A stretch of 62,992 nt of DNA, filler included, from Stramenopiles sp. TOSAG23-6 (GCA_900128565.1; 9 parts of 9 records of this genome joined end to end with filler, not necessarily neighbours in it), one strand, 5' to 3'. Counted from the whole stretch's first letter, positions 1-62,992 are shown. Numbers and translations: made by a program. The notes: generated by a model not told the origin, from the letters alone.

Positions 1-2291
1 TTCGACCGTCTTCATCCCAATCCATGTGTTTTGGAAAAATATTTCAAAAAAAAAAAATCGTTAGGTACAAAATTTCGTACGAAAAAAAAACGAATTTGAA
101 AAAAAATTAAAACATACATCATCATTGCAGCAGCTTTTAGAACACCACCACCACCACCACCACCACTATCAGGAAATTGATCATCTTTTTTCACACCACT
201 AACATTTTGTAGAAACAAAAGTGGATGTATTGTGAAAAATATTGTTTTGTAAAAAAATCGTTAGGTACAAAATTCCGTACGAAAAAACTTAAATTTGAAA
301 TTCATTGTGAAAACGTACAATATCTCGATTCTCGCAAAGATTAACAAATTGAGCCCCTTTTCGAGCTCCTTGAGCACATAGCAATGTTTCACTATTTGCA
401 ATAATACCTACTGGGTTACCATTAATTTCAGAAAACCCAGTCATTAGAGAATTCCCATATGGATTATGAAAAAATATTTCAAAAACATCTAAAAAAAAAT
501 GTTACGTACAAAATTTTTTTACCAAAAAAAAAAAATACAAATTCGAAATTAAAATGAAAACGTACACTCGCCTTTACATTCTCGAAAAATAGAATCATCC
601 ACAATTCTACTAATTATTGCTTCCATTTCGGGTCTTTTAATTAAAGAAGAATCATTTGGTGGAATTAAATGTAGTAAATCTATAAGCTTTAATTTGGGTT
701 CTGTCACAGAATCTTTTCGCTTCCATAATTTTTGTATCTTTGAATCATATATTGTAAAAAAATATTTTTTTTCTTTAAGAAAAAAAAATTTAGGTACAAA
801 ATTACATACGAAAAAAAAAAAAAATTCAACATTCATGATGAAAACGTATGTAATTTGTTTCTTCAATCAGTTCTCGAACCATTCTCGAAGCATCTAACTC
901 ATCCACTGCCAATTGATCAGTTAAACCAGACCATGAACGGTAAAAAAAAACAATTTCAGAAAAACAAAAAAAATGTTAGGTACGAAATTTCGTATGAAAA
1001 AAAAAANAANTNAAANTNCATAATGAAAATGTACATGAGCAGTGAACGCGTGCACCACCTAAATCTTCGGCAGTTACAATTTCACCTGTAGCTGCTGCAA
1101 CTAGAGGAGGTCCACCTAAAAATATTGTGCCAATTTTGTCCACAATTATGTTTGCATCTGCCATGGCTGGGACGTATGTATTGTGAAAAAAAAATATATA
1201 TAAAAATCATTAGGTATAAAATTTGGTACGAAATATTTTTTTTCCAATTTTTTTTTTTCGAAAAAAAAAGTGAACCTACATGCCCCACCGGCAGTGCAAG
1301 AGCCTGAAACGACTGCAACAGACGGTATACCACGAGATGACATAATAGCTTCATTATAAAACACACGGCCTCCATGGATTATGAAAAAATATTTCAATAA
1401 AAATTCGTTAGGTACAAAATTTCGTACGAAAAAAAAATTCGAAATCGAAAAAAAAATAAAACAAACATGATCTCGGTCAGGAAATATATCTGCTTGGAGC
1501 GGAAGGAACGCTCCCCCCGAATCAACAAGATAGATGTTTTGAATGAAAATATTTCAAAAATTTGATTTTTTTTTTGTTAGGTACAAAATTAACTACGAAA
1601 AAAAATAAATTGAAATGATATAAATAAACATACATAACTGGTAAGTCATTTTCCATTGCGACTTCCTGTGCTCTGTTATTTATGAGATTTTAAGATGATT
1701 TGAGATTGTGAGTCACATGTGTAAAAATAGTAGTATGATACACTATATCACAAATATAGCAGAAATATTTCAGAAAATTGTACAAAGTATTAAAAAAAAA
1801 TGGATTGTGATGAAATACCGCAATTGTTTCTTTACCCCAATGGGGAAAAGAGTACCACCCTTTACCGTTGCATCATTCGCAATAATCATGCAATCTATGC
1901 CACTGACTTGACCAATACCAGCAACAACACCAGCAGAAGGAACTGTCATTCGTGGCTTTCCAGGTCCTTGTGAATATAACTCAAGTCCAGCCAAAGGTGC
2001 AAGCTCCAAGAATTCAGAATTTGCGTCTAGAACCATACGGATTCTATCACGAGGAAGAATTTTTTTGTTCTTCTTGACATGTCGTTCTATAGCTTTCTCT
2101 CCACCCCCGAGGAATGCCACATTAATATGTTTCGAAAGTTCCTCTTTCAAAGCTTTGTTTTTTTTTAAATTATCATTTTGTGAAACACAGTTTAGATCAA
2201 CCGCAGGACCACTTAAAACTTTAAAACGCGATGAAAACGTAGACGTCGAGAATCCACGAGTCAAACGAATCCTAACATTAATTCTCCACAT
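1..2291 (-). CDS. MCCC2: Methylcrotonyl-CoA carboxylase beta-type carboxyltransferase, 3'-truncated; exons 2291-1819, 1672-1634, 1533-1467, 1373-1280, 1175-1035, 932-850, 746-566, 458-319, 224-118, 23-<1
   Basis: The spliced translation gives [63 protein letters not shown] and IPLLFLQN. The N-terminus resembles a mitochondrial presequence. All exon phases are consistent. Confidence 0.9.
24..117 (-). mobile_element. Introner-like family intron, GT-AT, 94 nt
   Basis: AT|GTATGTTTT...TTTCGTACGAAATTTTGTACCTAAC...AAAACACAT|G. Confidence 0.8.
225..318 (-). mobile_element. Introner-like family intron, GT-AT, 94 nt
   Basis: Removal gives GAT ATT|CCA CTT (D-I-P-L-L-F-L-Q-N). Confidence 0.9.
459..565 (-). 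mobile_element. Introner-like family intron, GT-AT, 107 nt
   Basis: Removal gives GAG T|AT GGG (E-Y-G). An internal AG at 489-490 would also be in frame but would insert 10 aa. Confidence 0.8.
747..849 (-). mobile_element. Introner-like family intron, AT-AT variant, 103 nt
   Basis: TAC|ATACGTTTTC...ACAATATAT|GAT keeps the frame between the flanking exons. Confidence 0.75.
933..1034 (-). mobile_element. Introner-like family intron, GT-AT, 102 nt
   Basis: Removal gives VHCS-W-SGLTD. Confidence 0.85.
1176..1279 (-). mobile_element. Introner-like family intron, GT-AT, 104 nt
   Basis: Removal gives GCA T|AC GTC and restores TAGGAYVPAM. Confidence 0.9.
1374..1466 (-). mobile_element. Introner-like family intron, GT-AT, 93 nt
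   Basis: Removal gives CAT|GGA and restores [13 protein letters not shown]. Confidence 0.9.
1534..1633 (-). mobile_element. Introner-like family intron, GT-AT, 100 nt
   Basis: Removal gives AT|C and restores [11 protein letters not shown]. Confidence 0.9.
1673..1818 (-). other. Canonical GT-AG intron, 146 nt
   Basis: CG|GTATTT...AACAG|A restores KKQLRAQE. Confidence 0.85.
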
Positions 2292-2534
2292 TATATTTTG
2301 TTGTAGACTTAATAAAGTTGATGAATTATCAGTTAGTACATGACATTGTTTGATTTTATTCCATTAATGATTATTATGTTGGAAAAAAAGAACAAGACTT
2401 CAAAAAGTGCCTGATTGGCCAAAATTTGATTTGCCATCCATCAAATGATTCAAATCGGCAATCAGCGCTCACTCGCATCATCTCGATTAAACTACCTGAC
2501 CTCAGGCAACTAACAGCAGACATTCGCTTTTCTG

Positions 2535-8610: not shown

Positions 8611-9733
<1,123 letters not shown>

Positions 9734-17903: not shown

Positions 17904-19531
17904 ATGCCTAATAAGCGACAGCATCAACCTAATTCCGGAAGAACACCAGGATCGAAGAAATCTAGGAGTGTCCTTGGAGCCACTTATCTGAAAAATTGTC
18001 CAGCTGGTGGACAATGTGCGGCTATAAGGTGTCATAACGATGTGTCAAAGACATGGTATGATGTTCTCAACAACAGAACAGATCTCCAAAGTATTTGTCC
18101 AATAAATATTCATGCTGGTCGTCATTTTGTCTGTTTCGGTTGCGCACAAAGTGCAAATATTGGTCAAGTTGTAAGTTGAGTGTACATCTTCATTTTTTAC
18201 TGTACGAACTCGATTTTTTAATATGTTGTACCTAACTATACAATAACCATTCTGTACTAGGCCTGAGTTCTAACTAATCGGCATTCAATTTATATATTCA
18301 TTTTTTTGTAGGGTGCTGAATTATGGTGCAGTAGAAAAGGCTGTAGTCATGGCCCGTGCGGAAAGGCTGCAATACTTGGAAAAAAAATGACAAATTGGCC
18401 CGGCAAAAGTGGTAAATTATGTCAGCTAAAGTCGTTACCAATGAATTGGGTAGTGAACAGAGCAAATTTAGTAAGAAGCACGAGGCCTGAATTATATAAC
18501 GGAAAAGTATGTCAATGCTGCTTTTCTGATTTCTTGGCTGAACATCGTTTAAAGGAGAACGAAAGAAATCGTGTCAATGAGTCCACCAAAAGAGCAGCAA
18601 GAAGACTGAAAACGAGTATAAAAAATAGTCAAACTCAGGTGTCTGATTCTGGTCACAAAGAAGATGTCCCTGTTGCAGCTGTTGACAATGGTACATTGGA
18701 AAAACATAATCAGCTAACACCGCATGATGATCAGCTAACACCGCGTGCTACTAGTACTAGTAGTTGTAACAGTCCCACACACCCCAAAACGCCTGTTGCA
18801 TCTAGAAGAGTTAATATTGATCGTAGTAGTACTGAAAGTGATAGTAGTACAGTAATTAATAGTAGTGTGGTGAGTGATATTCATTTAGTAGTAGATGGTG
18901 AAATTTCTTTACAATCACCAATTGTGCCTATCAGAACACCTTTGGACACAAATAGTAATAATATTGATGATAGTAGAAATAGTATTAGTGATTATAGTGT
19001 AGTAAGAGCAACAAATAATAATAATAATGATAATAGCACCAAAATTAGTAATAATAATAGCAATGTAATTAGTAATATTATTAATAAAAAAAATGATAAC
19101 CATAATCCATCTATGGTTTTATCAACCACCCCATCACGTCCCAAAACCAAAAACTCTGCTACTTTTCGCACAGCTGGGAAAATATTTGATAAAAAGCACA
19201 AAACGACAAGATATAAAAAAGCCACACCATTAAGCAAAAATGCACCAGGACGTCTAGCAAGAAAATCTACATTGATGCAACGAAAAAGTCAAAGTAAAGT
19301 GTATCTTGACTTGGACAATTTACCAGCAGATCTTACAGGGTCAATAACAGTTGAAACCCATTTAATCTTAGAAGAATGGACAAAACAAACATGCCCCAAT
19401 TGCCAATTCACAGGAGATGATAATGGTCATGTCTTTTCATTCCATCATCATGAGTGGAAAAGTTGTGTTTGTTTTAATTTTTTTTCAAATTCGAATTTTT
19501 TTTCGTACGAAATTTTGTACCTAACGATTTT
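17904..19531 (+). CDS. Cys-rich hypothetical protein, 3'-truncated; exons 17904-18170 and 18312-19466
   Basis: A canonical GTAAGT...TGTAG intron (18171-18311) joins two ORFs in frame; several CxxC clusters and an N/S-rich linker. Confidence 0.65.
19467..19531 (+). mobile_element. Introner-like family copy truncated by contig end
   Basis: GTTTGTTTT, CAAATTCGAATTT and the core motif. Confidence 0.8.
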
Positions 19532-27311: not shown

Positions 27312-29319
27312 ATGACGGACTACATGGCAGAACTGATTACAGAGACAGGGTTGGCTGTGCCTGCACCGAATACTATGCGAGGGCATCGTACTCCTATTTC
27401 TGTAAACGCTAAAGATGGGGACACGTTTGCATACGGCGCAAAAAAGATGACAGTCATCCGTAGTTTACGTACGCCGTCTACTTCTTTGGTTGACACGAAT
27501 CATCAAGAAACAGTCCGTGTTGCTCGATTTGATAAAAGTGGTTCTTGGGTAGCAAGTGCAGACGTAACAGGAGTACTCCGCGTGTGGGCTTGGAAACGGG
27601 AGGATCATTTATTGAAAAAGGAAAGTCGACCAATTGCAGGAGAGGTTACAGATTTGGCTTGGGATTCCGACTCAAAGCGCATCGCTGTAGTTGGAAAAGC
27701 CCGGGGATGCAAAGGCAAAGTTGTTGGATGGGACACAGGATCGGCGATGGGTGAGCTTACGCAACACACTAAAAATATCAATTGTTGTTCTTTCCGTCAA
27801 TCTCGTCCGTTTCGTGTGTGTACTGGAGGAGAAGATAGAAATGTCATTTTGCATCAAGGACCTCCGTTCAAAGTGCTTTTGCGTAATAAGGCCGGACATA
27901 AAAATTATGTAAATGCTATGGCATACAGTCCTGATGATTCTGTATTTGCTACGGGATCATCAGATACTCGTATTCGCATATGGGACGGGAAAACTGGAGA
28001 AAAACTAAAGCAAATGGCCTGTACGTTTTTCAACCAAATGTCTACTTTTTTTTGTTACGAAATTTCATACCTAACATTTTTTTTTTCCCTTTTCAAATGA
28101 ATGACTAGAATGTATCGTTCAATTTGAAGTTTATTTTTATACCACATTCTCTGTATCTAAACATATTTTCGAATTGTGCATATTTCTTTACTGTACACGG
28201 AAAGGTGAAAATCCTGGACACGTAGGTTCCGTGATGGATTTGTGCTGGTCAGAGGATGGAAAAACAGTAATTTCCTGTGGTAGTGACAAAAAACTTTGCT
28301 GGTATGATCTTGAAACACGAGCGTGTTTGAATGAGTGTATTGTCCGTGATAAAGTTACCGTGACTTCGTTTCCAGATCTAAAACCGCAAGTCCATCATCA
28401 GCTGGTTAGTGTTTCTCGGTGCGTTTTCATTTCAATTTCGAATTTGGTTTTTTTTTCGTACGAAATTTTGTACCTAACGATTTTTTTTGAAATATTTTTT
28501 CATAATCCATGTGCGGCGATAAATTATTAGTAGGCTCTCTTGCTGGAGATATCAATGTCATTGAAGCTACAGATGGCACATTTGTCGACACTATATATAG
28601 TCATACATCTATGGTATCTAAAAATAGTCTTGTACTCGCATCCGATGGGAAAACAGTTTATTCAGGAGATCTTGGTGGTATGATTTTCTGTTGGGATGTT
28701 ACTGCTGATTACCTTCAGCTTTCACGATTACCTGGTTATGCTGTGCCTGACGATAACCGAATGGCACATGATGGTTGTGTGCAAGGTATCGCAGCTCTTA
28801 CTAACAATTGTCTTTTGTCTGTTGGTAATGATGACACGTGTCGTGTTTGGATGAATGGAGTCTCAGCAGGTGTTGGGGATAAACTTGGAGGCCAACCACG
28901 TTCTATGGTGTCTGTTGGTCCTTCTGATAAGGCTACTATGGCCATTATTGTGACTTCGAAAAATAAAGTTCTTACGGTCAATGGGTCAGGGAAAATTATT
29001 TCATCATTCGATTTACCTTATTCTGCTAGTAATGCTCTTGCTGTGTCTGTAACTGGAACTGAAATTGCTATTGGTTCATCTCAAAGAGGTAGAGGTGTAA
29101 TGCATAGATATGAACTTGTTGATGGCGTAATTGGCAATGAGCTTCAAAAAGTCTGTGGTAATGCAGAATATTATGAGAATGCTGAAGACGCAGAGTATTC
29201 TCCGGATGGCACGATGTTGGCTGTTGGCTGGGGAAAAGGAGAAGTTTCGCTATATGAAAGTGTATGTTTTATTTTTTTTCAAATTCGAATTTTTTTTTCG
29301 TACGAAATTTTGTACCTAA
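27312..29319 (+). CDS. WDR1: Actin-interacting protein 1 / WD repeat protein 1, 3'-truncated; exons 27312-28020, 28199-28418 and 28511-29261
   Basis: WD40 repeats with RPFRVCTGGED, GPPFK and WDTGSAMGE. Confidence 0.85.
28021..28198 (+). mobile_element. Compound family intron (two back-to-back degenerate copies), GT-AC overall
   Basis: Two core-like motifs (TACGAAATTTCATACCTAAC and TACCACATTCTCTGTATCTAAAC); removal restores the frame. Confidence 0.65.
28419..28510 (+). mobile_element. Introner-like family intron, GT-AT, 92 nt
   Basis: CG|GTGCGTTTTC...ATAATCCAT|G, in frame. Confidence 0.85.
29262..29319 (+). mobile_element. Introner-like family copy truncated by contig end
   Basis: Consensus 5' half and core. 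Confidence 0.85.
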
Positions 29320-29419: not shown

Positions 29420-29473
29420 TACGAAATTTTGTACCTAACGAATTTTTTTTTGAAATATTTTTCCAAAATACAC
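29420..29473 (+). mobile_element. 3' half of a family copy, ending in AC
   Basis: Core followed by GAAATATTTTTCCAAAATACAC. Confidence 0.75.
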
Positions 29474-32400
29474 GAATCAAAATTTTTCATGGACAGGCCA
29501 AAAATTATTACAAATGCATGAAATCGATATGACGCATATTTTGCCAAGTAAAAAACATATTACAGGTTCTGTTTCTATGTACGTTTCCATGATAAATTTC
29601 AAATATGTTTTTTTCGTACGAAATTCCGTACCTAACAATTTTTTTCTAAAATATTTTTTCACAATACATACATGTACAATCAGTATTACCTAAAATACGG
29701 GATTACGTTGCTTCTTCCATTACATTTCAATGTGAAGGTATTGGTCTTAGTATGATTGATAGTAAACCTCGTGAAGTTTTATATTTCAGTATTGATGGTT
29801 TAAAATGTGAACATAAGCAGTTTCGTTCTGGTCGATCTAATTTTAAATTTAGTATTCGTCGTGTTCAGATTGATAATTCTCTACAAAGCGCAGTATATCC
29901 TACAGTATTAGCTTGGAAATATGACAGAAAAACCGAAAATGTACAAAAAAACAAAACAATCAAAGATAAGAAGAAAACACAACAAAAAACTGCTGGTTTT
30001 CGAAAGCACACGCCTCTACCCGAGGATGATATTATTAACATTACTATTGACATGGACACACCTGCTCCAGGTTATACACATTTTTATTTGTTAGATTTTT
30101 GTTTTCATCCGATGACTCTTCACGTGGATTTGGAATTTATACTTGCCTTACTTGGTTTGATTCAGAATGTCATGACAGATACATCAGATGATACTAAAGT
30201 TAATAAGTCATTAACCTTGGACAATCAGCATAAACTATTAGCAATCGCGTTGTTTACACCACTCGTTGACACGAATCATTGTATCAAATCTACTATAGTT
30301 GATGGAGGTATTTATGTAGATAAATTAGAAATCGGCGATATTGAGTTGGACATTACTGTAAAAGTTGGCGACGGTGACGCTTTAAGTCATCAGTTGAATG
30401 TGATGAATATTGACGGAGTAACAAGAACGTTTGTAAATGTATTGGCGTCTATGGTAGCAAATATAGATAACGCACCACTTCGTCTTAAGTCGTATTCTGA
30501 CAAAGACAACGCAACAACAATAGGTACTCTCAGCAATAGTTTGATTAGTTTTTATACTGCAAGTATTTTAAGACAATCTTTTGCTCTTCTTGGGTCAATT
30601 AGCTTTCTTGGAGACCCTGGTGGTTTAGTGAGAAATGTAGGAACTGGAGTCAGTGATTTTTTTATGATACCCGCTGAGGCTTTACAAAGTGGCAATTTGA
30701 AAAATGCTGCTCAGGCAATGGCATTAGGAACATCATCTTTGCTAAGTCACACAGCATATGGTGTGACCCACTCACTTGCTTCTGTTGCGAAAACAGCAAA
30801 TATGGGTTTGACAAAGCTTGCACTTGATGATAAATATAGTCAATCAAGAGCCGAAGAAAATCGTGAAAATCAAAAAAATAACCTCACATTTCTTACCACT
30901 GATACAACTGTAACGAAAGGAGCAAGTATGTTTTTATCATCAATTTTAAATTTATTTTGTTTCCATTGAAAATTCCATATGTAACGAATTTCTGTTCTAA
31001 AAATATGTTTTCACAGTACATCCACTCGTAAAGATCTTGATGCGGCAGTGCAAGGATTTGGTAGAGGTTTCTTACAAGGTGTTACAGGATTATTTACAAA
31101 ACCAGTTGATGGTATAAAAAAGGAAGGTGTATTAGGAGGTGTAAAAGGAATAGGAAAAGGCGTACTAGGATTAATTGTAAAACCCACAGCTGGTTTACTT
31201 GATTTATTGAGTGGGACTCTGGATGGTGTAAGTCATTTTGCAAAACAAGAATACCATGTCACCCGTGTCAGATTGCCACGCGTTATAGATTCTCAAGGCA
31301 CAGTAACATTATATAGTGAAAGAGAAGCCATTGGTTGTACTGTCATGACGATGAAGCAAAAATTGTCTACAAAGGAAGTTTACATATACCATTCTCTTGA
31401 ATCTATATTGATGAGCGAAGGTAGCGTTAAGCGACTGGCTTTAGTCACAAATATGTTTGTTTATTTGTATGAAATAGCTACAAAGTCTGCAGGAGAATTA
31501 GAGGAAATTTGGAAATTAAAAATACATGGTATTAATGAGATATCTATCTTTGGAAAACAAAAAATAATTCTGAATGAATCAGAAAGTGCAACACAAACAA
31601 AAGGAGTGGTGAAGTCATATACAATTGAGTATAATACTAAAGAATCTAAAAATGATGAGAATAATCTTATTTTGATGATTGATGTTTTGACTGCTTTAAC
31701 TGGAGTTGAAGTTACCGACACAGCAACATCAAGTGTCACAGGAACATCAAGTGACAAAGTGGACAATTCTTCGGAGATAGAATTAAATTCAGAAAATAGA
31801 GGCATCCAAACTGATTCTATACAATGGTTGAGTATTGTCCAGGCTGAAAAACAAAAATTGAGAAATATTGAAAGGATGAAACAATTTGAATACAGTAGAA
31901 AAATTGTAAAGGATTCTGTGCACAAATCTATTTTGAAACAATTTTTGCACCAACCTGAAACAAATGATAATGGGAATACGTGGAATATGATTTCACCGTG
32001 TAAGTTTTCAAAATTGTTCTTTTTTACCATTTTTGAATTTTGTTTTTCAAGAAATTTTGTACCTTACAAAAAATAAAACTTAAAATATATTTTCACAATA
32101 CATCAAAACGAAGAAATTCTAGAAATTCTAAACGAAGAAATTCTAGACATTCTAAACGAAGAAATTCTAGACATTCTAAACGATTGTCAGATACGTCATC
32201 TATTAACTCTATAACATCACCGATGTTCTCTATTTTGAATGAAAAACCAGATGTCATTATTGACAACGCTTTCCGGCAAATGAAGTCTACAAAGCTACAC
32301 GTAGAAGCTTCAAAGGAAGGAAGAGGTTTATTTCTATCTTTGATTGACCTCAGAGTGTTACGAGCTGAACGAAAACACGATAGTTCTAAAAAAGGATTGA

Positions 32401-34104: not shown

Positions 34105-34368
34105 TCTACCTTGCCCTTATATTATATTGATAATATCAAGATAGGCTTACAAATTTTTTAACAGTCTCTGGAGTTGGAGTAATTTGGAAGAAAGGTTCGA
34201 GCGAGGATCTTAAGGATCCGCGCAAACCTGCTTCAAAAATGAAAAATTTTTAATCATTATCATCGAGCCAGTTCCTTTGAAATCAGCCTCCGATCAACTA
34301 GAGTCGCTTCATAGTAGTTTGCATAAAAAAAGTGTGTGTGTGATCTCATCATTCACTGATCTTCAACT

Positions 34369-35514: not shown

Positions 35515-35679
35515 GTAATAAACTAGTATATAACTATAATATTTCGGAATTTTATTTTATTTTATTTATGTGTTGTGAAGAAAATGTCATAATAAAAAAT
35601 AGCAACTTTTTCAAATTCGATTTTTTTTTCGTACGGAATTTTGTACCTAACAAATTTAAGTTTTTTTTTTTAAATAGTA

Positions 35680-37366
35680 TTATTGGTCAGCAAGCTCTTG
35701 GAGATATCGACCAAGTAACTTAATTCCATTGAAATAATTCGTACAATTAATCTTTTCATTTTGAGAGTGCGCCATATCATCACCTGCTCCAATAGGTAGC
35801 AACAATACTTGTTTCTTTAGTGCTTTTTCAAATACTATTGTGATAGGTATAGAACCACCTTCACGTGTCAAATCTGGTTCAATGTATTGTGAAAAAATAT
35901 ATTTTTTTAAATTTGTTAGGTACAAAATTTCGTACGAAAAAAAAATAGACAAAAAAAATGAAAACGTACATTCCGTAGACTTTCTTAATAGCTAATCTAC
36001 CAGCTAAAAAATTGTTCCCATCTGGATTTGTCACCCAAGCAGGGGATCCTTTATCCATAATTAATGTATTTTGGAAAAATATTTCAAAATTTTCTTAAAA
36101 AAAAAATTGTTAGGTACAACATTTCGTACGAAAAAAAAAATCGATTTTTTTGTTAAAAAAAAAATTAAACATACATTCATATCTGTTAGGAGAATCTAGT
36201 TTACACCATTCAGAAGCAATATGTGCTTGAACGAGTTCATTGACACGAGATGGAGTCATATCGGGAACTAAGCGCAACGAAAACTTTGCAATCACTTTCC
36301 GCGGAATAACAGTTTTCGAACCACATCCATAAAAAGCGCCTTCAATTCCATGTATACTCAGCGTAGGAAACCGCCATCGATGCATCAATACATTTTTTTT
36401 TGTAGTATGAAGTAGTCTATTACTAATACCATTCACTCCAACATCAATTTGATACTGTTTAAGATCAAAATCAATTGTATTATAGGTATCTTCTTCTTCT
36501 TGAGTCACTGGTTTTACATCATCATAAATACCAGCCACACAAATTCGTCCCTGAGAATCAACTAAACCCGATAACAAAATGGTTAAATCCGTCATAGCTT
36601 CATGAACACTTCCTCCAATAACGCCACTATGTAAATCCTTTGAAGAGCATTCTACACTCAAATGAAAATATGAAAGACCTCTTAAACCGTACGTTAAGCA
36701 TGGCTTTGTACACCCCAACCAATAATTATCACTAATACAACAAAAGTCAATTGTCGAAGGATCCAAAAACTCTTTTGATGTAGCTAATGATTTCACTAAA
36801 GTTGGGAGACCAACACTTCCACTCTCTTCCATACCTTCAAAAATACACTTCACGTTTAATGGTAAGTCAATACCACAACGTTGAAACGCTTCAATCGCCC
36901 AGAGCCAACAAAGCATTGGCCCCTTATCATCAGTAGATCCACGGCCATAGAGCTTACCATCCTTTTCAGTCAAAACCCAAGGATCTGTTGACCATCCATC
37001 ACTGACATAGGCGGGTTGAACATCTAGATGACCATATACTAAAATTGTCTTCTTTTCTGGATCATTTCCGAACTGGGCACAAAGTACTGGTGGGAGTGCA
37101 ATTTCATCACCATTTGCATGTTTTTGCATTCCTAAATACTCTAATTTTGTCGTTGCACCAAGTTTTTTACACCATGATTGGCAAGTCTTTACCATCTTTA
37201 CAACTTCAGGCCTTTTTTCTGGTTCCGCTGATACACTGCGAATGGCCACAGCTTCTTCTAATCGTTTTATATAACTATCAGTATTTGCATCTACATATGC
37301 CGAAAAAATATCAAAATTTTTTTCTTTCGTTGAATGTGCCACCTTTTGCCGCTTATTAGAAGACAT
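35680..37366 (-). CDS. CNDP2: Cytosolic non-specific dipeptidase (M20); exons 37366-36175, 36063-35970 and 35881-35680
   Basis: [42 protein letters not shown] and AHSQNEK. Confidence 0.93.
35882..35969 (-). mobile_element. Introner-like family intron, GT-AT, 88 nt
   Basis: Removal restores [16 protein letters not shown]. Confidence 0.9.
36064..36174 (-). mobile_element. Introner-like family intron, GT-AT, 111 nt
   Basis: GAA T|GTATG...AATACAT|TA, in frame. Confidence 0.88.
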
Positions 37367-37717: not shown

Positions 37718-39099
37718 ATGCATTTACAGCATATATCGTTGTGTATATTTGTATCATTGAACATCCTTTCAAGTTGTGGTTTACAAACATCAACGGGCAA
37801 AGAGCCACCTTCTCTGATTGAGAAACCTCCACAAATAATAGAAAAAAATGTGAACAATCGTTCTGTACAATGCGCATCAAACAGAAACTCCCACTTAAAT
37901 TTGATTGTTTTTACACTTTTCTTTGATCAGCCGATATTATTCTCAAATACCGCTCTACCTGATGTTTTGCGAGATATGACGGCTTTGAGGAAAATGGATC
38001 ACTTGTTTACTTTACAGTGCCAGCACAAGTATTATCGTCCAGGTTTGTCTCGGTATCAAAGCGAAAGGCAGCCTATTTTATTTGTTATTCCACTTGAGCA
38101 AGTAATATCTGAATATCAAAAGAAGTTTCAGATTCAGAATATAGAAAATATCCCAAATCCTTCAAATACAACACATACAAAAAGCACAAAAAGTAAAATA
38201 GAGCCTAGTCAAATGCTTCAAATAGCACTTGCTCACCCACCACATACTGTACAGGTTAATCCACAAAATTGTAAACTACTTTATCGGCCCTATACGGAAA
38301 AAGGAAAGAATCGATATTCATTGAAAAGTGTTACAGACATAGAATTTAGTCAAAATATTATCCGTTTTAATTTTCCAAAGAAACCCTTATCAAAATTATT
38401 CACTAGGAAAATTCGGAAGTTTTCTTATCATCACATTATTCCATATTTACTTGCTCAAACAACAGATGCAAATGCTACACTGAACACTATAAAACCTATA
38501 AAATTGAGCACAGAAGATGTCAGTATTACAAAAGAAGACAATGATTTAAATGTAAAGATGGAAGAAAAACATACTTCAAAATATTTTATAAATAAAAAAA
38601 AAGCAAATGATATTCATTCCGGAAGTCGAACATTACTCACTGTATTAGATGATGCACCATTGAGAACAATTCCTGAAATACAAAGTCTTCAAATGTCTCG
38701 CCAAATAAATAATAATCAAATTTATGAAATGACAGAAATGGATGAATCAATGCTAAGTTTACTAGAGATTTCTAATAAATTACGTACCTTAACAAGTACG
38801 TTTTCATTATGAATTTCAATTTTTTTTTTAGTTTTCGTACGNNNNNNNNNTTTCGAATTTAATTTTTTTTAACAATACATGTAGTGGCGAAAAGGTTTCA
38901 ATGAAAACGATAGAGGAGGTCATAATAAACCCTATAGGATTCGTTGCAGGCAATATCATACCTACCGTTCTTTTCTGGATTTTGAAAGAACCTTGTGTTG
39001 TTTTAATTGAATGGATTTTAGAAAATATGCTAATGCCCCCTTTCACACAACCTGTCTTGGATAATTTAGATAGTAATGGCGATATTTCATATGAAATTC
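37718..39099 (+). CDS. Hypothetical secreted protein, 3'-truncated; family intron at 38796-38880 (GT-AT, contains Ns)
   Basis: Signal-peptide-like N-terminus; intron removal joins ORFs 37718 and 38901 in frame. Confidence 0.6.
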
Positions 39100-39199: not shown

Positions 39200-39586
39200 A
39201 AAAAAACGAGGTGTTGATTACTACACGTTATGTATGTTTTATTTTTTTTTTTTTATGATTTTTTTTTTCATACGAAATTTTGTACCTAACAATTTTTTTT
39301 TTTTTTTGAAAATTTTTTCCAAGGATATGTCTGCGCAAGACGAGCAGCAAGATTTCCAGTCTCAAATGAAGCTCAACGTGTTGTTCAAAATCATCGAGAT
39401 TTTGAAAATCTTCGCCAAATTGATGAGAGAGAAAAAAAAGTCCGAGATTGGCATTTACAATCAGGATTTTGTGAATATGGAGAACTGCCTAATACATTTA
39501 AATATGCATTATTATGGGATAAAATGTTAACAACACCAGAAAAAGATCGACTTGTTGCATCACAACCGATGACGTCACTTTTCTAA
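39200..39586 (+). CDS. 3' fragment of an unknown gene with a family intron at 39232-39328
   Basis: TAT|GTATG...GATAT|GTC gives an open frame to TAA at 39586; frame assignment is uncertain. Confidence 0.45.
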
Positions 39587-42420: not shown

Positions 42421-43707
42421 ATGTCTTTAAATGCTTCCCCCAGTATTGCTTCAGTTTCTGTAGATGTTGCCACTGAGGATTTGTTTAGCATAGAAGATAA
42501 TCCATTTGGTGATTCCCCTAAAAATGATTCCGCCTCGACACAAGTCAACTTGGAAAGTTTTCCAAAATCCTCTCTCAGTTCTCCGGCCCTTGCGTCTGTT
42601 GTTAGCGTTGCTTCTAGTGTAGATGGTGGTTTAGAAAACGATCAACTTTTGCATGAGCGAACCAATTCATTTGGTGGTGCTAACTGTGGTGGTCGCATTC
42701 AGGATGATGGGGAAGATTTCCATGTCTGTAGAGAAGGTATGTTCGATTATCCCCCAGATCGAAACTTTGGTGGAGATACAGATGGAATGATTGGGCTTCC
42801 TCGTTGTTGTTATAAACGTAGAATAGGCCGAGCATATATATGTTGGGAATCGAAACGTAGAAAAGATAAATCAAATATAAAATGTATGATAGGTGCATGC
42901 TGGCCAATGATGTTTTTCACTATAGCTTTGATTATTGGAATCGCCAGTTTTGTCTATTTCACGGCATTACCTAATTTATCCTGGCCTTTTTGGGTTGCTT
43001 CATTTCTTGTCACTGGACTAACTGTAGGTGCATTGTCATGTACATCATGTTCGGATCCTGGTATTTTCCCGAGATACACATCTCCTGAAGGCGATCATTG
43101 GCGATATTGCGAGCGTTCAGATTCCTATCGACCTCCAGGTGTACGTTTTATATGAATTTTTTTTTCTATAATTTTTTTTTCATACGAAATTTCGTACCTA
43201 ACGATTTTTTTTACAATAATTTTTTTTCTATAATTTTTTTTTCATACGAAATTTCGTACCTAACGATTTTTTTACAATAATTTTTTTTTGTGTACAACAC
43301 ATGTCGTGTTCTGTCATGAAAGTCAGTTTCTTGTAAAGGACATTGATCACTTCTGTCCCTGGACTGGGACTACAATTGCTAAAGATAATCTCATATATTT
43401 TCAATGTTTTGTTAGTATGCTTTGTTTTCACATTGTATTTCTAGTTTTTATCAGTCTAATGGCAGTAGAGCCACATGTATGTTAATTTTTTTTTCAATTT
43501 CGAATTTATTTATTTTTTATAGTAAACTTTGTACCTAACAATTTTTTTTTTAAACTTTGTACCTAAAAATTTTTTTTTTTTTTTTTTTTGAAATATTTTT
43601 CAAAAAAAATCGAATTTTTTTTTGATTTTTTATAGTAAATTTTGTACCTAACAAATTTTATATATATTTTTTTCACAATACATGTTCGAAATAATGTTTC
43701 GCCTTAG
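42421..43707 (+). CDS. DHHC-type palmitoyltransferase (DHFC variant); exons 42421-43140, 43303-43476 and 43684-43707
   Basis: SDPGI, C..SDSYRPPG..C....DHFCPWTGTTIAKDN..F; transmembrane helices. Confidence 0.85.
43141..43302 (+). mobile_element. Family intron, GT-AT, 162 nt, with internal tandem duplication
   Basis: Core present twice; removal restores RPPG-VVFC. Confidence 0.85.
43477..43683 (+). mobile_element. Family intron, GT-AT, 207 nt, three TTTGTACCTAA cores
   Basis: CAT|GTATG...AATACAT|GTT. Confidence 0.75.
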
Positions 43708-45663: not shown

Positions 45664-48600
45664 TTAAATATGTCTTATTGGAGGTAATGTCAATGATCGC
45701 GATGTGTAATTTTTTGACTTGACTTTACGTATATTTGAAATCATGGAATCTTTTGACCATGCAACATTTGAATGAATATTTGAATGAACATTTGAATGAA
45801 CATTTGAATATCGGTGTAGAGGTTCCGATGAATGTTTATCCACAGCTGCACTTATTTCATCAAAAAAGTTTCCAGCAAATGCAACACCATCATCATCAAT
45901 TTTATGTGAATCATGTCCATACCCATCAAATTCATGTATATATAAATTACTCTCGGTATTTCGAGTATTTTGAGTATTTTGAGTATTTTGAATATTTTGT
46001 TTTTTGTTTTTTTTATCTCCTCTTTTCGCTTTCGTCCTCGACTTTATTTGTTTTTTACGATTTTTATTATTACCTCTCTTAAATTTTCTTTTACGTTTCA
46101 TCATCAACAATAAAGTTTCTCTATTATTTATTCCCCATTCTTTACCAAGGGCAGCTAATTTTGATTCCTTTTTTGTATTTTTAAGGGTGTTTTGGTTGAG
46201 TTTTACTTCCTGTAAGCCTTCATTGAGAACTGTACGACCATCACTAACATGATTACTATTAAAGTTAGGGTTACTTTGTTTTGGTAAAAGAAGTATATTT
46301 GACTTAGGGTTTGTGGTCATCGACTTGGAAGTAGGTGCAGTTTTCTTTAATGAGACATGACGGTATGACTCACTTTGATTCGATGATTGCATATCATCAA
46401 AATCATTAAAATCATCAAAATCATTAAAATTATCAAAATCGTCATTGATATCTAAGTCATCATTGATATCAAGAAATGAATTAATATCTACTTCATCATA
46501 ATTAAAATCATCTTCATCAAAATATTTTGCACCGTCTCGTGCCGTAGACAAAACCTTCCGTAGAATATACCCTCTGAAAAGACTTTGTATACATACAACT
46601 GCGGCATTCATTGTGGACTTGTTTTTCTTAATTTGACTATTATGTACCTCATTGTTGACCAAAGCTCGAAGTTCAAAGGCACCTCGGGCTCCACCACCAC
46701 GAGCACGCGATCCTCGATTGAGCGTAGCAGTGAGTGTTGCAGACGATTGAGGTGAACCAGGTAAAGCACACGCAACAGCTTCTGCAGCAGATCGTAATTC
46801 ATTTGCTTTGATATGGAATTCTCTTTCAGAAATTTTTCCAATATCAAGAAAATGATTTAATTGAGTTAGTGTAGTATTGACATTATCTCTATCACTAACA
46901 CTTTCTAGTGTAATATTAACATTATCTCTATCACTAACACGTTCTAGTGTAGTATTGACATTATCTCTATCACTGACATTTTCAAATATACTTTTTGTTA
47001 TTTTTGAGATTGTTGTATGCTTAGTTTCATCATTTTGTTTTGTATGTTTTTTTTCATTATTGTTTTTCTGAGTTATTTCCAAATTCCCTCCCCATGCTAC
47101 TACAGGAGTTCTATAATGACTATGTTTTTGTTTTTCTTCATTTTGAATTTCAGTACCTATACTTGCTCTACTTTTTTTTTTTTGTCTTTGAATTTGTTCC
47201 CTTTTTTGCTGCTTTTGGATTTCATCTGCTTTTTCTTTTTCTTTTCGTAAACGTTCCATTTCAAATAATCTTTGTTGTTCTGCTTCTTTTTCTTTTCGCA
47301 AACGTTCCATTTCAANTAATCTNTNTTGTTCTTTTTCTTTTTCTTTTCGCAAACGTTCCATTTCAAATAATCTATGTTGTTCCGCGCGTTCCAATTCTTG
47401 TTGAACTTTCCGTTGATATATCTCCTTTCTTTTCTTAATTTCTTCACGTTTTTGCTTTTCTAATTTTAGTCTATTTTGCACATATTCTTTATGCTTTTCG
47501 TGTCTCATTTGTGCTACAATTTTCCTTGCCATTCTTCCACGCTGATTTGTTTGAATGAGTATGTATTTTGGAAGAATATTTCAAAAAAAAAAGATGTTAG
47601 GTATAAAATTTCGTACGAAAAAAAATTCATACAAAAAAAAATAAAACATACATTGCAGCAATTCTTCTTTGGATTTGTTTTTTTTTTGATTCTCTAAATA
47701 GCTTTTGCAATCCCAAAGATGCAATTATTTTCTTTTTATATCTAATTTGTTCTTGGAATCTAAATACCTTTCTATCATACATTTCCTTTCTATATTTTTC
47801 ACGTCGGAGATTTTCTTCTTTTTCCAAACGTTTTCTTTGTAACATATTTCGTGTTTGCTCTTCTTCTCGGTGTTTTTCTCTTTTTTTTGCCATCGTTTCA
47901 CGTGCGAGTCTCCAACGTTCTTCATCTTTTTGAAGCTTTATAATTCTATTTTGTATTTCTTTTTCTTTCAATTTTTCTTCTTGGCGTTTTTGTTTAANNN
48001 NNNNNNNNNNNNNNNNNNNNNNNNNNNNNNNNNNNNNNNNNNNNNNNNNNNNNNNNNNNNNNNNNNNNNNNNNNNNNNNNNNNNNNNNNNNNNNNNNACA
48101 TACATATTCCTCAGCATTACATTTTGCTTCTTGTAATCGAAGATCCCGGGCCACCTTAATTTGTATCTCCAACTCTTCATCCTGTTGACGATGTTTTTCA
48201 TCAATTTTATAGTTGTCTTCGATTATAGTGTTCACAGCTGTTTGGCATTCACTTACAATATCATGTATTGATTTTTCATGTTTATTTTGTAGATTATTTT
48301 TTTCAGCTAGGGTTAGGTCTATACTAGGGTTAGTGTTTATATTTATTTTTGTGTCTTTTGTACTATTTGATGAAAGTTCAACAATATTGTCATTATTGTC
48401 ATTTTGTACAGAATATATTGTCGATTTGGGTATTGTATTTATTTGATTAGTGGTCATTTTTGTCTCCTGTTCTTCTACAGTCTTCACAAATGAATGTGTA
48501 CTAGGGTTAGGGCTTGATGGCATTGTGGTTGATGTTGTATTTGTTATTTCTTTCTGTTTGTCTATATTAGTTGACATTGGTAAATCATTTTCATGTTTTA

Positions 48601-48951: not shown

Positions 48952-49692
48952 GGTACAAAATTTCGTACGAAAAAAAATCGAATTTGAAAAAAAATAAAAC
49001 ATACATATTTTTCCCTTTTAATCTACTAAAATTCCAATTAAAACTTTGAGATTTTTGTGATCCGACTCCCGTATACATGTATTTTAGAAACATATTTCAA
49101 AAAAAATTCTAAAAAAATTTGTTAGGTACAAAATTTCGTACGAAAAAAAAAATCGTTTTTTTTTGTAAAAAAAAAATAAAACATACATTGGAACATAAAT
49201 AATTAACCACTCAGCATCTGTGTTTTCTATCTTTTTTATCCATTTTCGAATTTTTGGCTCTACATCTTCTTTATAAGTATTCATATCCTCTGCTTTTGAT
49301 ATAAATATATGAAGATATGGTTCTTGATACCAAGTGTCAGGATTTGTAAACGAAGGCCAAGATGGATCGTTTTCATGCTTATAGTGCAATTGCAAGGAAC
49401 TAATATCACGACAAATTTTGGATGGTGTCATTTTATTTGGTGACAGAATGAAATTTGAAGGTTTACCCGATATACCTGGTATTTTCTTTAGGGGAGAAGA
49501 TAACGATTGATTTTCATTCTGACTTGCTGACCAATGAAGAGAAAGATGTACGTCTTTAAGAATTTCTCCAATTCCAAGTTGAAGAAGTGTTGGCCAAAGT
49601 GACCACTCGTCATTATACGATATTGCAACCCGTGGGCATAATTTTGACTCACTGTCAACTAATGAAGAATAACTTTCAGGGAGAAATGACAT
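48952..49692 (-). CDS. TRAPPC10: TRAPP II subunit TRAPPC10/Trs130 N-terminus, truncated; family introns 49077-49186 (GT-AT) and 48952-49004; mirror copy at 57855-58595 (+)
   Basis: PYLHIFI..ED..TYK..V.PKIRKW.....EWLIIYV resembles the Trs130 N-terminal domain. Confidence 0.6.
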
Positions 49693-52531: not shown

Positions 52532-53667
52532 ATGTGGAAGTCAGATGGACACACAATATTTAGATCAGCCCAGCCATTTCCAAAACAAATCCCTGATATA
52601 GTAGTTGCGTGTGTAGATAACTTGCGAACGAAAGCTCTAGATGTAGTGGGCCTCTTTCGCATACCTGCGGCCATGACTCTTGTATTTGATTATAAACAGA
52701 AAATAGACGAAGCTGGTGAAAATAGTAGTACAATAATCTATAATATAGATGATCCACACATAGTGGCTGGGTTACTTACGCTATACATTAAATTGTTGCC
52801 AACTTCTCCGCTACCATTCAAGGAGATACAAGAAGTTGGTTTAAGGAAGCAATTAGAAGACTTTGATGCAATTTGTGAGCTCCTGACAGGTTTGTCTTTA
52901 CCAAAGTGGAATATACTCAAGTTTATATTAAATTTCCTTAGTGATGTCGCGGCAAAATCCGAATTAAATGAAATGTCGGTGTCAGAGCTAGCAAAAGTGT
53001 TTGGCCCGCTTCTTTGTCGTCCGACAAAAGGGACGTATATGTCTCTCATGCACTGCAATGGCCTGAGTAATATTCAAGTGTTAGTCCATGTATTCCTTGA
53101 AAATCACGAAAAAGTAATTGAAAAAGTCGAAATAAATCGAAAATCTGAACTTGATAAATCAAAACATTCAGATATCTCAAAAGAGAAAAAATGTGACACA
53201 TCATCATCATCAAATGCATCTGTCAATGATGTTTCACAAGTGTCTCCAAAAAATGTTGATACTTTTATAGAAAACGAAAGCAAATATTCTGACAATTCTG
53301 ACAACAAAAACAATAATTTTGATGCATCATTATCTTCGCCAAGTGATGCTACAACTGATGATGCATCCATGTCGCCGAATCAATCTGATATTGATAACAA
53401 TACACGAGTATTTTTTAATCATTTTTTTATCATTTTTTTTTTCATACGAAATTTTGTACCTAACGATTTTTTTTTGAAAATTTTCAAAAAAAAAAAAAAA
53501 AAAAAAAAAATAAATATTTTTGACAATATAGGATAATGTAGAAAAATTGAAAAAAATTAAAAAACAAGTGAAAGAAGAAGGAAAAACGACTCATCCACTA
53601 AAAGTAAATACAAATATTCAAAAAAGTATCTCAACGAAATTATCATCGTCAAGAAGAAATACCGATA
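52532..53667 (+). CDS. RhoGAP-domain protein, truncated; family intron 53408-53531 (GT-AG) and a copy from 53668
   Basis: GLFRIP arginine finger, DPHIVAGLL and N.M....LAKVFGPLL; start codon uncertain. Confidence 0.85.
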
Positions 53668-53879
53668 GTACGTTTCCATTATGAAATTTACATTTTTTTT
53701 TTCTTTTTTTTTTTCATACGAAATTTTGTACCTAACGATTTTTTTTTACGAAAAAAAAAAAAAAAAAAAAAAATTTTTTTTTTTTTTTTTTTTTTTCGTA
53801 AAAAAAAATCGTTAGGTACAAAATTTCGTATGAAAAAAAAAAAGAAAAAAAAAATGTAAATTTCATAATGGAAACGTAC

Positions 53880-58695: not shown

Positions 58696-59897
58696 TTCAG
58701 AAAAAGAAAAAAAAAACATACATGCCCAATAACTGCCATGAATCTGTAAATAATTCAGATACATAAAGTCCTAGACTACCTGCTATAGATGCAATCATAA
58801 TACTATATCCTAACCATTGACCACCAACATGTCGTGCAATTTTTGGAAAACTACCCTCATCCCAATCTTGCCATGCAGGCTTATTTACCCCAGCGGCAAT
58901 TGCTAATGGAAGAATTGTCATGAAACTGACAATAAGTAAAGCAAATAATAATCCATTGGGTACATTCTGTTTCGCATTTTTTATTTCTCCTGCACTTGTT
59001 GAAACGGCATCAAATCCTGAATAACTCCAATATAAAATACTTAATAAATTTCTATAATTGGAAATATTTGCATTGACATTAATCTCATCATATTTTATTT
59101 CAATAGTATCATTTGGACCTTTACTTACAAACAAATTTCGTATGTCCACTTGAGGAAGACCAATCATTATAAACAGTATAAATGGTACAATGACTATAAT
59201 TGAAAGAATACTCATATATAAGCCTATTTTCTTCAATAATAAAAGATTAGGTAAAGCGAAAACATGTACTGTAAAAAAAATATTTCCAAACATTTCAAAA
59301 ATTGGTTTTTTTGTTAGGTACAAAATTTCGTACGAAAAAAAAAATTGAAATATATTTTTTTTTTTTCAAATTTTGAAAACCTACAATGGCAAGAGAAATT
59401 GTAGCTATATTTTTCCACAGAGGTGATAATTCAACGTCAAATGCGGATGAACATGAATGATATACAATGACAGGATAAATTGCATTGTCAACAACACCAC
59501 TACACCAAGACCACCAAGATTGTTGGATACCCCAAAATGTACCAAATGCTTCAGTCACCCAAATACTATAGCCACCGTCATCTGGAAATGTTGTGGAGAG
59601 CTCAGCAGTCATAAATGCAACTGGAGTAGCCCAAACAAGTGGGAAAAGTAAAAGACCTAAAATACCAGGTAAAGGACCCGCTGATGATATGACACCTTCT
59701 GAGCCGTACGGTCCACCGCTTACACTAAAAAATGTCAGACTTATCACAAATAATCGACCTAAAACACGTTTATGTTGATGTTGATCACCACCACCACCTG
59801 ATTCTGAAGGAGAACGACTGCGAGAAAATTCGTCTTTTTCTCCTTTTAAAGTATACTCCTCTGGATATTCATGTATATACTCTTTAGATGAAATCAT
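58696..59897 (-). CDS. APC-superfamily polyamine/amino acid transporter, 3'-truncated; exons 59897-59385 and 59263-58722
   Basis: FFSVSGGPYGSE, AELSTTFPDDGGY..WV..AFG and WSYSGFD...AGE. Confidence 0.88.
59264..59384 (-). mobile_element. Introner-like family intron, GT-AT, 121 nt
   Basis: ATT|GTAGGTTTTC...CAGTACAT|GTT is in frame; the AG 5 nt upstream of the end would frameshift. Confidence 0.85.
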
Positions 59898-60257
59898 TTT
59901 TTAACAAGAATATTTCCAAGATATTTTAGTGGCAAGAAAAAAACATCTGGAGAGATTCAAGAAAAAGAAGAAGAATTGAAGTATAAAACTATTCGTAGCC
60001 TATTTTGGTTTTTTTGCTGAATTCGAATTTCAAATTTAAAATGTCTTTTTCCGTTACATGAANNNNNNNNNNNNNNNNNNNNNNNNNNNNNNNNNNNNNN
60101 NNNNNNTTAATTAATTAANNNNNNNNNNNNNNNNNNNNNNNNNNNNNNNNNNNNNNNNNNNNTATCATTCATTTCAATTTCGGATTTTTTTTTGTACCAA
60201 ATTTCGTACCTAACAAAAAAACAATCAAATTTTTGAAATATTTTTCTAAAATTACAT

Positions 60258-60795
60258 GTATTCTCCCGATCAAAAGGAATCAATTCCTCCAGGATCTTTT
60301 CTTTTCGAGTATATAGGAATGCATATACTCAGCAATGACGTTCCGTATGGGGAAAATTTTTATGAATTTGCGTTACCAAATACCGCGAATTTTTCAATCG
60401 ATGCTAGATATTTTGGTAATATAAGCAGATTTGTGAACCATCAGTGTGGACAAAATAATACAGCAGTCAAGAGTTTATACAGTGAAGCAACACCGTTTGA
60501 GAGATTGACTTTCTATGCAACGAAAAATATCCATCCTGGTGATTGGTTAACATTTAATTATTCACAAGGTCAAATAACAAAAAAAACGAAAAAANNNNNN
60601 NNNNNNNNNNNNNNNNNNNNNNNNNNNNNNNNNNNNNNNNNNNNNNNNNNNNNNNNNNNNNNNNNNNNNNNNNNNNNNNNNNNNNNNNNNNNNNNNNNNN
60701 NNNNNNNNNNNNNNNNNNNNNNNNNNNNNNNNNNNNNNNNNNNNNNNNNNNNCACAAGGTCAAATAACAAAAAAAACGAAAAATTTAGGTTTTGA
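60258..60795 (+). CDS. SET-domain methyltransferase, 3' fragment, preceded by the 3' part of a family intron (60163-60257)
   Basis: FEYIG, IDARYFGNISRFVNH.C and LTFNY. Confidence 0.8.
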
Positions 60796-62377: not shown

Positions 62378-62906
62378 ATGCGGTTACTTTACATTGCTCT
62401 CGGTATAGTATCCTTCACACAGGCTCTTCTTTCGAGTATATTTGGTGCATATTCAACTCGTATATTTAATGAAGTCTTTGGTCTTGAGCCACTAGGTTTC
62501 ACTGTAGCTCACGTGTTTTTCCTCGTAACGAATGCAGTCAACGATCCAATTATTGGAATATACCTCGACGTACAAGTAAGAAAGAAAAAAAGCACACTTG
62601 AAAAACTTAAAACTCGTGCGTATTCACTCATTAGTAGTGGTTTCGGGCTTGTCTTTGTATTTGTAGTATTACCGTGGTATCAATGGGGAAATTCTGACTC
62701 ATCTTCACAAAGTGTATTAGCCATTCATTTCTTTTCTTCGCTTTTCTTTTTTGATTGTTTCTTTACTGCCTTTACACTTACTGAATCAGCGTTATCAGCA
62801 GAATGTACTACCTATTCTGAAACAAAACGAGCGTCATTGACACATTGGAGAACTTTATGTAGTGGAATTGGTGTTTTATTTGGGCTTCCATTAGCTGAAG
62901 TTGCAT
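62378..62906 (+). CDS. MFS transporter (GPH/MFSD13A-like), first exon; absent from the ORF track
   Basis: Manual translation MRLLYIALG...NAVNDPIIGIYLD...HFFSSLFFFDCFFT; multiple hydrophobic segments. Confidence 0.7.
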
Positions 62907-62992
62907 GTATGTTTTATTTTTTTTCAAATTCTAAAAATTTTTTTTCGTACGAAATTTTGTACCTAACAATTTTTTTAGATTTTTTTTTGAAA
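62907..62992 (+). mobile_element. Introner-like family copy truncated by window end
   Basis: GCAT|GTATGTTTT plus core. Confidence 0.85.

Follow-up and report, generated by a model that had tools for sequence, protein, structure and literature searches.

A family of introner-like insertions with a CAT 3' end in the genes of a stramenopile

The 62,992-nt stretch of Stramenopiles sp. TOSAG23-6 (GCA_900128565.1) analysed here, hereafter the window, consists of nine contigs separated by N44-TTAATTAATTAA-N44 spacers and has the composition of an AT-rich eukaryote (GC content 25–39%). Its protein-coding genes are interrupted by many copies of one short sequence family. Our analysis confirms, at the level of the sequence, that these copies fill whole intron-like intervals, lie in sense orientation in unrelated genes, and would have to be removed exactly for correct proteins to be made. 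We consider it likely that they are introner-like spliceosomal introns whose 3' splice site does without AG. Their removal from RNA by the major spliceosome, the GT-AT register of that removal and the past mobility of the elements are what we infer from this picture. What would be new here, as far as the sequence tells, is that a heterotrophic stramenopile has an introner-like family whose 3' end is uniformly non-AG and which existing annotation has missed.

The motif GTAYGTTTT, with which the elements begin, occurs 25 times in the window against 2.1 expected, a count that none of 100 shuffles reached. A hidden Markov model (HMM) of the family, built on 11 copies picked by regular expression, returned 39 nhmmer matches at E<1e-3; without the four mirror images that lie in a palindromic contig, 35 are unique, and two pairs of matches are parts of composite introns. 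These unique copies, of a family 85-120 nt long, fall in about 16 host genes, in good agreement with the first-pass annotation of this DNA, which had been made from the sequence alone and had reported some 35 related insertions in about 15 genes. Twenty-two copies of 85–207 nt could be delimited completely: 20 run GT..AT, one AT..AT (849-747) and one GT..AG (20804-20716). Two further degenerate copies (28021, 39232), with the family 5' half and a diverged 3' part, probably end in AG or AC, which brings these figures close to the earlier tally of 21 GT-AT, 2 GT-AG, 1 GT-AC and 1 AT-AT. Many contigs start or end within a family copy, as assemblies commonly do at high-copy repeats. In the five well-defined genes (MCCB, CNDP2-like, MET17-like, WD40 and VPS13-like), family copies make up 19 of the 20 delimited introns.

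The orientation of the copies is strikingly one-sided. By a crude rule, in which the longest open reading frame (ORF) touching a copy sets the strand, 30/35 are in sense (binomial p=2e-5). The five exceptions comprise three copies in MCCB, where short exons let chance ORFs win and the strand is fixed by homology, one intergenic fragment between convergent genes and one tie at the palindrome centre. Clearly antisense copies number 0/35 (binomial p=2e-10 for 33/33 sense), and the earlier statement that every intragenic copy lies in sense stands. Excision of a copy, first G and last T included, puts the longest ORF on its upstream side in frame with the longest on its downstream side in 20/22 cases, where one third is expected (p=3e-8). 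Both exceptions have very short downstream exons, and one of them, 9490-9588 in the MET17-like gene, still reads ..SYH/GMNFWE.. in matching frame (the slash marks the junction here and below). The complete copies are spread over all length classes (7/9/6 by residue modulo 3) and all insertion phases (6/8/8), and their retention would place a stop inside the element in 15/22. Similarity between copies covers both intron boundaries, and conservation falls at exon positions -3 and +2.

Homology across the junctions leads to the same cuts. An MCCB reading built from window coordinates was aligned to 12 full-length homologues found with its first exon: all seven testable family junctions (1-7) are gap-free against the 12, and several junction stretches, such as TAGGAYVPAM, are identical to the closest homologue, P0220. 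The CNDP2-like reading is gap-free against 8/8 homologues over both of its junctions, and in the AA_permease gene the Pfam profile continues over the 59264..59384 junction (..123 / 114..). The first-pass claim that removal restores frame and conserved motifs in housekeeping genes is borne out for the frame and for MCCB and CNDP2; the gene it had called WDR1 was confirmed as a WD40 gene, not as WDR1 specifically.

The ends of the elements are as uniform as their orientation. At the 5' end we find G at +1 in 30/31 copies, T at +2 in 31/31, A at +3 in 28/31, G at +5 in 30/31 and T at +6 in 31/31; at the 3' end, C at -3 in 23/24, A at -2 in 24/24 and T at -1 in 22/24, the last position being G in 1/24 and C in 1/24. 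A CCTAAC-like branch motif is present in 21/22 complete copies, 32-50 nt from the 3' end. The conserved GTAYGTTTT and CAT ends, and a CCTAAC some 30-45 nt from the end, had been described before and are recovered here. Of the features of U2-type introns, the copies thus have a GT with a U1/U6-compatible extension and a branch motif upstream of a T-rich tract; AG at the 3' end is the feature that fails, with T at -1 in 22/24. Hemiascomycete-type U2 introns read GTATGT ... TACTAAC ... YAG. The elements resemble them in their strong GTAYGT 5' site, CTAAC branch core and branch-to-3' distance of tens of nucleotides; they differ in ending on CAT instead of YAG and in that the CAT or AG nearest downstream of the branch may be passed over.

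We propose that the elements form a non-autonomous, introner-like family, each copy of which would carry a full linear set of splice signals with it into the exon where it sits: a 5' site like that of yeast (GTAYGTTTT), the branch motif TTTGTACCTAAC, a T-rich tract and the 3' terminus AAWMCAT, in this order. The pre-mRNA would be cut immediately 5' of GT and immediately 3' of CAT, making most copies GT-AT introns. The major spliceosome would recognise the strong 5' site and the branch site, and its second step would accept U at the last intron position; AG would be dispensable for defining the 3' site, and ordinary GT-AG introns would be processed alongside. A spliceosome that no longer needs the terminal G had been suggested from the start. 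We retain this only as a proposal; an ordinary GT-AG intron (1818-1673) coexists with the family copies in MCCB. This intron begins with GTATTTCATCACAATCCAT and contains GAAATATTTCTGC, strings that resemble the family 3' part, and it may itself be a rearranged old family copy. Broader still, and to our minds with slightly less than an even chance of being right, is the idea that one introner family has supplied most introns of this marine stramenopile lineage and that the second step, falling after CAT, is directed by element-borne sequence and not by AG.

RNA data speak on both sides. In five metatranscriptome runs from seawater, 6-16% of the words sampled from contig 29420-39099 are present, a share that carries no claim about habitat, and four of these runs were compared as assembled contigs; most exons of 29420-39099 have little or no cover there and are uninformative. 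Mapping to RNA had been named as the check on the first-pass reading, and in it one contig leaves the genome at a predicted boundary and one retains an element. The former, X3 record 22, is a contig from a poly(A) library (156 nt, depth 12.1) that matches 36175-36302 without mismatch from its position 24 onwards, its first 23 letters leaving the genome exactly at the predicted 5' boundary 36174/36175 of CNDP2-like intron 1. This is consistent with a splice junction, without amounting to proof. Similar element-bearing contigs occur in independent public RNA libraries. When transcript-derived peptides were searched for junction-spanning sequences, the end of CNDP2 exon 1 gave 96 matches, none above 86% identity and none from this organism, and an MCCB exon returned the published model only. 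A 20-nt element core had no match in metagenome contigs; a looser two-part pattern found 19 loci there, which we regard as chance matches because none of them (0/19) matches the family HMM.

Several observations weigh against splicing in the GT-AT register as we propose it. The second of the two contigs, X1 record 1 (RNA library, 170 nt, depth 2.1), is unspliced, matching 29621-29786 without a break across 29669/29670, the 3' boundary of copy 29579-29669; it could represent either unspliced RNA or pre-mRNA, or DNA carry-over. No splice junction was seen directly: among the joints listed for the four runs, none skips an element exactly, and those that are listed connect the cores of elements from different loci and do not represent splicing. 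The summed depth of element cores is in the thousands in two runs, as against 1-8 for exons, a figure that says nothing on splicing because many loci contribute to it and that may reflect pre-mRNA or DNA carry-over. Four copies carry an earlier CAT that would have to be skipped, so that a rule of 'first CAT after the branch' fails in 4 copies; 'first AG' fails in 6. GT-AT is only sporadic among known U2-type introns, as far as the accessible text of the survey goes (PMC1557818). Finally, 17/31 copies are flanked by an exonic AT, and there GT..AT, TG..CA and AT..AC cuts yield the same mRNA; TG..CA and GT..AT do so wherever exon -1 is T, and no protein comparison counts against the TG..CA register. 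Against these points stand orientation, signals, frame and homology, which together argue for removal at the RNA level.

Where, then, would the boundaries lie? The exonic AT precedes 17/31 5' ends (p=1e-9), with A at exon -2 in 21/31 and T at exon -1 in 25/31, and the ambiguity it creates was absent from the first-pass annotation. Judged by sequence conservation and one protein comparison, GT-AT is the favoured register of the three, because positions +1/+2 and -2/-3 are close to invariant, because the last three positions, C(-3) A(-2) N(-1), parallel the customary YAG (with CAG in one copy and CAC in another), and because in copy 318-225 of MCCB, whose flank is TT, the GT..AT cut gives Ile where 11/11 alignable homologues have I, L or V.

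The same elements could be spliceosomal introns with AT-AC (or TG-CA) as their true register, possibly removed by a minor-type spliceosome, which we think unlikely, though still a rival to be reckoned with. The AT that precedes 17/31 copies would then give them the termini ATGTA...TACAT, and A at +1 with C at -1 is a compatible pair. U12-type splicing tolerates GT-AT and AT-AN ends (PMC1557818), and the stramenopile Blastocystis is described as having hundreds of minor introns, mostly AT-AC (10.1101/2022.09.24.509304). However, 14/31 copies have no AT flank, and an AT-AC register would make the last two bases CC in 3 copies, AT in 1 and TC in 1, put Asn at 318-225 and create a stop at 849-747; TG..CA is weaker on invariance, exon -1 being T in 25/31. 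U12-type introns have the 5' site RTATCCTT and lack a pyrimidine tract; their branch site, TCCTTAAC, lies 10-26 nt from the 3' end. We reject membership of this class: the 5' motif is GTAYGTTTT and not RTATCCTT, with G at +5 in 30/31 and T at +6 in 31/31, and ACCTAAC lies 32-50 nt from the end, followed by a T tract.

Removal might instead happen at the level of DNA, by programmed elimination in the manner of ciliate internal eliminated sequences, or the elements might be recent insertions that the expressed gene copies lack. This is very unlikely in our view. The 5-bp inverted repeat at the ends of the consensus and the 2-bp AT direct repeat of many copies are reminiscent of cut-and-paste elements, and an RNA-library contig does retain an element. 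However, DNA excision leaves the strict sense orientation unexplained, with no antisense copy among 35; the 5' site, branch and T-tract motifs stand in the right order and spacing, and 14/31 copies lack the direct repeat. Nuclear dualism is, to our knowledge, not known in stramenopiles, which we also count against this explanation.

Equally improbable, we think, is that the introns are spliced at nearby canonical AGs or read through, as published gene models have it, giving proteins with insertions or truncations. Two public models do just this. P0001 (locus 35680-37366, minus strand) treats copy 35969-35882 as coding sequence and lacks a conserved block; in P0217 (locus 1-2291, minus strand) copy 1633-1534 is likewise read through, a TAG within copy 565-459 is used, and the model stops within copy 318-225. 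Six copies do have an AG that follows the branch motif and precedes the 3' end. However, 14/21 have none after the branch motif, and use of 5/6 of the earlier AGs would disrupt the reading frame or introduce a stop; the sixth, in copy 565-459, keeps the frame and adds 10 residues that are absent from 12/12 homologues. The first-pass remark that there is usually no usable AG is in line with this. Both models contain translated element sequence and lose conserved blocks; the family therefore went unrecognised when they were made, and the gene sets of the whole assembly are probably affected.

Least likely of all, the elements would never be removed, the genes being dead or the sequences artefacts of amplification or assembly; one contig is indeed a palindromic assembly artefact, as fits amplified single-cell DNA, yet in about 16 unrelated genes long exons have stayed open and join in frame in 20/22, the copies differ from one another (median identity 73%), and independent RNA libraries hold similar element-bearing contigs. 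Translational bypass elements, such as those of T4 gene 60 and the mitochondrial byps, have matching take-off and landing codons flanking a short gap. We reject this class for the family, whose repeat has only 2 nt, whose insertions occupy all three phases (6/8/8) and whose elements measure 85-207 nt.

Conserved RNA structure was also considered and rejected. Of seven single-copy folds, six have z-scores of -0.63 to +0.88 and one of -2.92, and RNAalifold predicted 0 pairs on 18 copies. The consensus ends, taken with the exonic AT (ATGTA/TACAT), are complementary over 5 bp; this terminal helix is no better than in shuffles, with 85.5% paired against 85.1% (174/500 shuffles for cells paired), at least one double change in 143/500 shuffles and no covariation. 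The G:C to A:U double change at +1/-3 in copy 849-747 is suggestive only and not significant. The uniform termini and the lack of a conserved helix likewise speak against a structure-defined non-conventional intron of the euglenid or Amoebophrya type.

Several features point to a mobile element. The copies form subfamilies in which 5' and 3' variants are paired (GTATG.. with ..CCAAAATACAT, GTACG..CAT.. with ..CACAATACAT, others with ..CATAATCCAT), some copies are tandem or nested, the copy number is high, and 13/24 insertions lie after AT and before G (p=7e-5). The origin of the copies could be either cut-and-paste, with a 2-bp AT duplication and short inverted ends, or reverse splicing into AT/G sites; the AT direct repeat, which matches the terminal AT, is present in 17/31 copies and missing in 14/31. 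Mobility, as claimed from the start, is suggested by copy number, subfamily structure and contig breaks; no empty site was seen, nor any autonomous partner in the window, where transposase was sought only through Pfam scans of 20 ORFs. As for the age of the family, among 18 simple copies pairwise identity has a median of 73% (range 57-89%), so that the expansion does not look very recent and the earlier 'recently expanded' becomes doubtful.

How does the family compare with known systems? Introners, or intron-generating transposons, are established in Micromonas, Aureococcus, Parmales and other eukaryotes (PMC12130899; 10.1101/2022.06.06.494994). Like them, the family described here is short, non-autonomous and multi-copy, has subfamilies and fills introns to both boundaries in unrelated genes; unlike described introners, which are annotated with GT-AG or other accepted sites (PMC12130899), it has AT at 22/24 3' ends. 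The introner hallmarks of target-site duplication and terminal inverted repeats are weak here: an AT repeat accompanies 17/31 copies, and the complementarity of the ends, 5 bp long, shows no covariation. Amoebophrya likewise has invasive, repeated non-GT-AG introns with short direct repeats at the boundary and inverted ends, on which gene finders failed; there, however, the terminal dinucleotides are highly variable and inverted repeats of 8-20 nt form hairpins (PMC7789003), in contrast to the uniform GT and CAT ends, classical branch motif and lack of a conserved hairpin in our family. In the animal Fritillaria borealis, 95% of introns are non-GT/AG, U2AF subunits are duplicated and the N6-methyladenosine of small nuclear RNAs is altered (10.1101/2025.08.15.670264). 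There, as here, most introns escape GT/AG and 3' recognition must depart from the norm, whereas its non-GT/AG termini are diverse and ours keep the 5' GT. The sporadic GT-AT introns of animals (the U2-type intron of DGCR2 and seven of U12 type) share the terminal dinucleotides; they are single and conserved, and form neither a repeated family nor the dominant intron type (PMC1557818). In the searched literature, supplements aside, we found no description of the family, in line with the first-pass statement that no described family has this consensus, and the accessible text of the MAST genome papers mentions no unusual introns.

Introns that end other than in AG (or AC) are rare exceptions, and a family that combines a CAT end with an ordinary GT start and a branch site of classical type would offer a well-defined natural setting in which to study how the second step of splicing chooses its 3' site. 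The intron content of the organism would be largely the product of one element, because 19/20 delimited introns in five genes are family copies. If the broader idea, of one family supplying most introns of the lineage and of a second step directed to CAT, is right, this would be the first organism with GT-AT as its prevailing intron type, and the published gene sets of the lineage would be systematically broken. For this uncultured group, numbers of genes, scores of completeness and inferences of function may carry a bias. Surveys of introners take annotated introns as their starting point and discard families whose splice sites are unfamiliar, unless RNA-seq backs them (PMC12130899); they would miss a family such as this one.

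The host ORFs belong to at least 10 different Pfam families, mutually unrelated: M20 peptidase, AMP-binding/NAD_binding_4, Cys_Met_Meta_PP, WD40, VPS13_C, AA_permease, SET, MFS_2, RhoGAP and, from the MCCB-like gene, a carboxyl transferase. The first exon of the M20 dipeptidase (36176-37366, minus strand) is identical to a EukProt coding sequence labelled GSMAST32.*, and the carboxyl-transferase exon 319-456 (minus strand) to a second coding sequence of that label, which we take to denote a single-cell co-assembly of a MAST-3 marine stramenopile. Family density is very uneven: MCCB carries eight copies in 1.6 kb, and a 2512-codon ABCA-type ORF (9864-17402, minus strand) and a Rab-like ORF (33170-33784, minus strand) carry none. 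All copies are collected in Table 1.

Table 1. Family copies in the window, with the ordinary MCCB intron as comparator
Position	Strand	Ends	Length (nt)	State	Host gene and remarks
24..117	-	GT..AT	94	complete	MCCB intron 8; exon flank AT
225..318	-	GT..AT	94	complete	MCCB intron 7; flank TT; register-discriminating, Ile in RDI/PLLFLQN
459..565	-	GT..AT, ending ATCCAT	107	complete	MCCB intron 6; flank GT; internal TAG
747..849	-	AT..AT (ATACG...ATATAT)	103	complete	MCCB intron 5; sole copy with A at +1 and sole copy with T at -3
933..1034	-	GTACA...GTTCAT	102	complete	MCCB intron 4; single Ns inside
1176..1279	-	GTAGG...ATACAT	104	complete	MCCB intron 3
1374..1466	-	GTTTG...ATCCAT	93	complete	MCCB intron 2
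1534..1633	-	GTATG...AAACAT	100	complete	MCCB intron 1
1673..1818	-	GT..AG	146	ordinary intron	MCCB; not a family member by nhmmer; comparator
9490..9588	+	GT..AT	99	complete	Cys_Met_Meta_PP (MET17-like)
9656..9733	+			5' part, cut by contig end	Cys_Met_Meta_PP (MET17-like)
19467..19531	+	GTTTG...		5' part, cut by contig end	
20716..20804	-	GT..AG	89	complete	AMP-binding/NAD_binding_4; ATACAG where others have ATACAT
28021..28204	+			family 5' half and branch motif, 3' part diverged	WD40; end 28198 (..AC) or 28204 (..AG), both in frame
28419..28510	+	GTGCG...ATCCAT	92	complete	WD40; flank CG
29262..29319	+			5' part, cut by contig end	WD40
29420..29473	+	..ATACAC		3' part, cut by contig start	
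29579..29669	+	GT..AT	91	complete	VPS13-like
30926..31021	+	GT..AT (CACAGTACAT)	96	complete	flank AA; CAG 5 nt upstream would break the frame
32000..32103	+	GTAAG...ATACAT	104	complete	VPS13_C-bearing gene
35617..35659	+			internal fragment (model positions 24-66)	between two convergent genes
35882..35969	-	GT..AT	88	complete	CNDP2-like intron 2
36064..36174	-	GT..AT	111	complete	CNDP2-like intron 1
38796..38880	+	GT..AT		complete	flank AA; 9 Ns inside
39232..39323	+	..CCAAG			just upstream of ATG; probably a GT..AG intron in a 5' untranslated region
43141..43302	+	GT..AT (ACACAT)	162		flank GT; branch-motif region tandemly duplicated inside
43477..43683	+	GT..AT	207	composite	fusion of two copies
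47561..47651	-	GT..AT	91	complete	
48952..49004	-			5' part at contig start	mirror 58543-58595
49077..49186	-	GT..AT	110	complete	mirror 58361-58470
53427..53749	+			two partial copies (53427-53483, 53668-53749)	3' end of RhoGAP gene; adjoin palindrome centre; mirrors 53798-54120
58696..58721	-			5' end at contig start	AA_permease
59264..59384	-	GTAGG...ACAGTACAT	121	complete	AA_permease
60163..60257	+	..TTACAT		3' part at contig start	SET-domain gene
62907..62992	+			5' part at window end	MFS_2

The two long copies 43141-43302 and 43477-43683 still join the flanking ORF frames or end the gene, and just 3' of the latter, at 43703-43733, lies a small, telomere-like inverted pair of units (TTAGGG.. 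facing ..CCCTAA). Contig 48952-58595 is a perfect reverse-complement palindrome (9644/9644 positions), centred in an A/T run at about 53773. It most likely arose as a fold-back chimera during assembly or whole-genome amplification; its genes and elements are all present twice, and its mirrored copies were counted once, leaving about 58 kb of unique sequence searched. Rfam and tRNA scans of the window gave no matches. Isolated single Ns occur within contigs (1007-1018, 23355-25895, 47316-47325 and elsewhere), as do N blocks of 100-158 nt (47998-48097, 60595-60752). Finally, two proteins that are otherwise conserved contain an inserted stretch of seven glycines (GGGGGGG): MCCB (120-224, minus strand) and the product of a second gene (34360-35514, plus strand).

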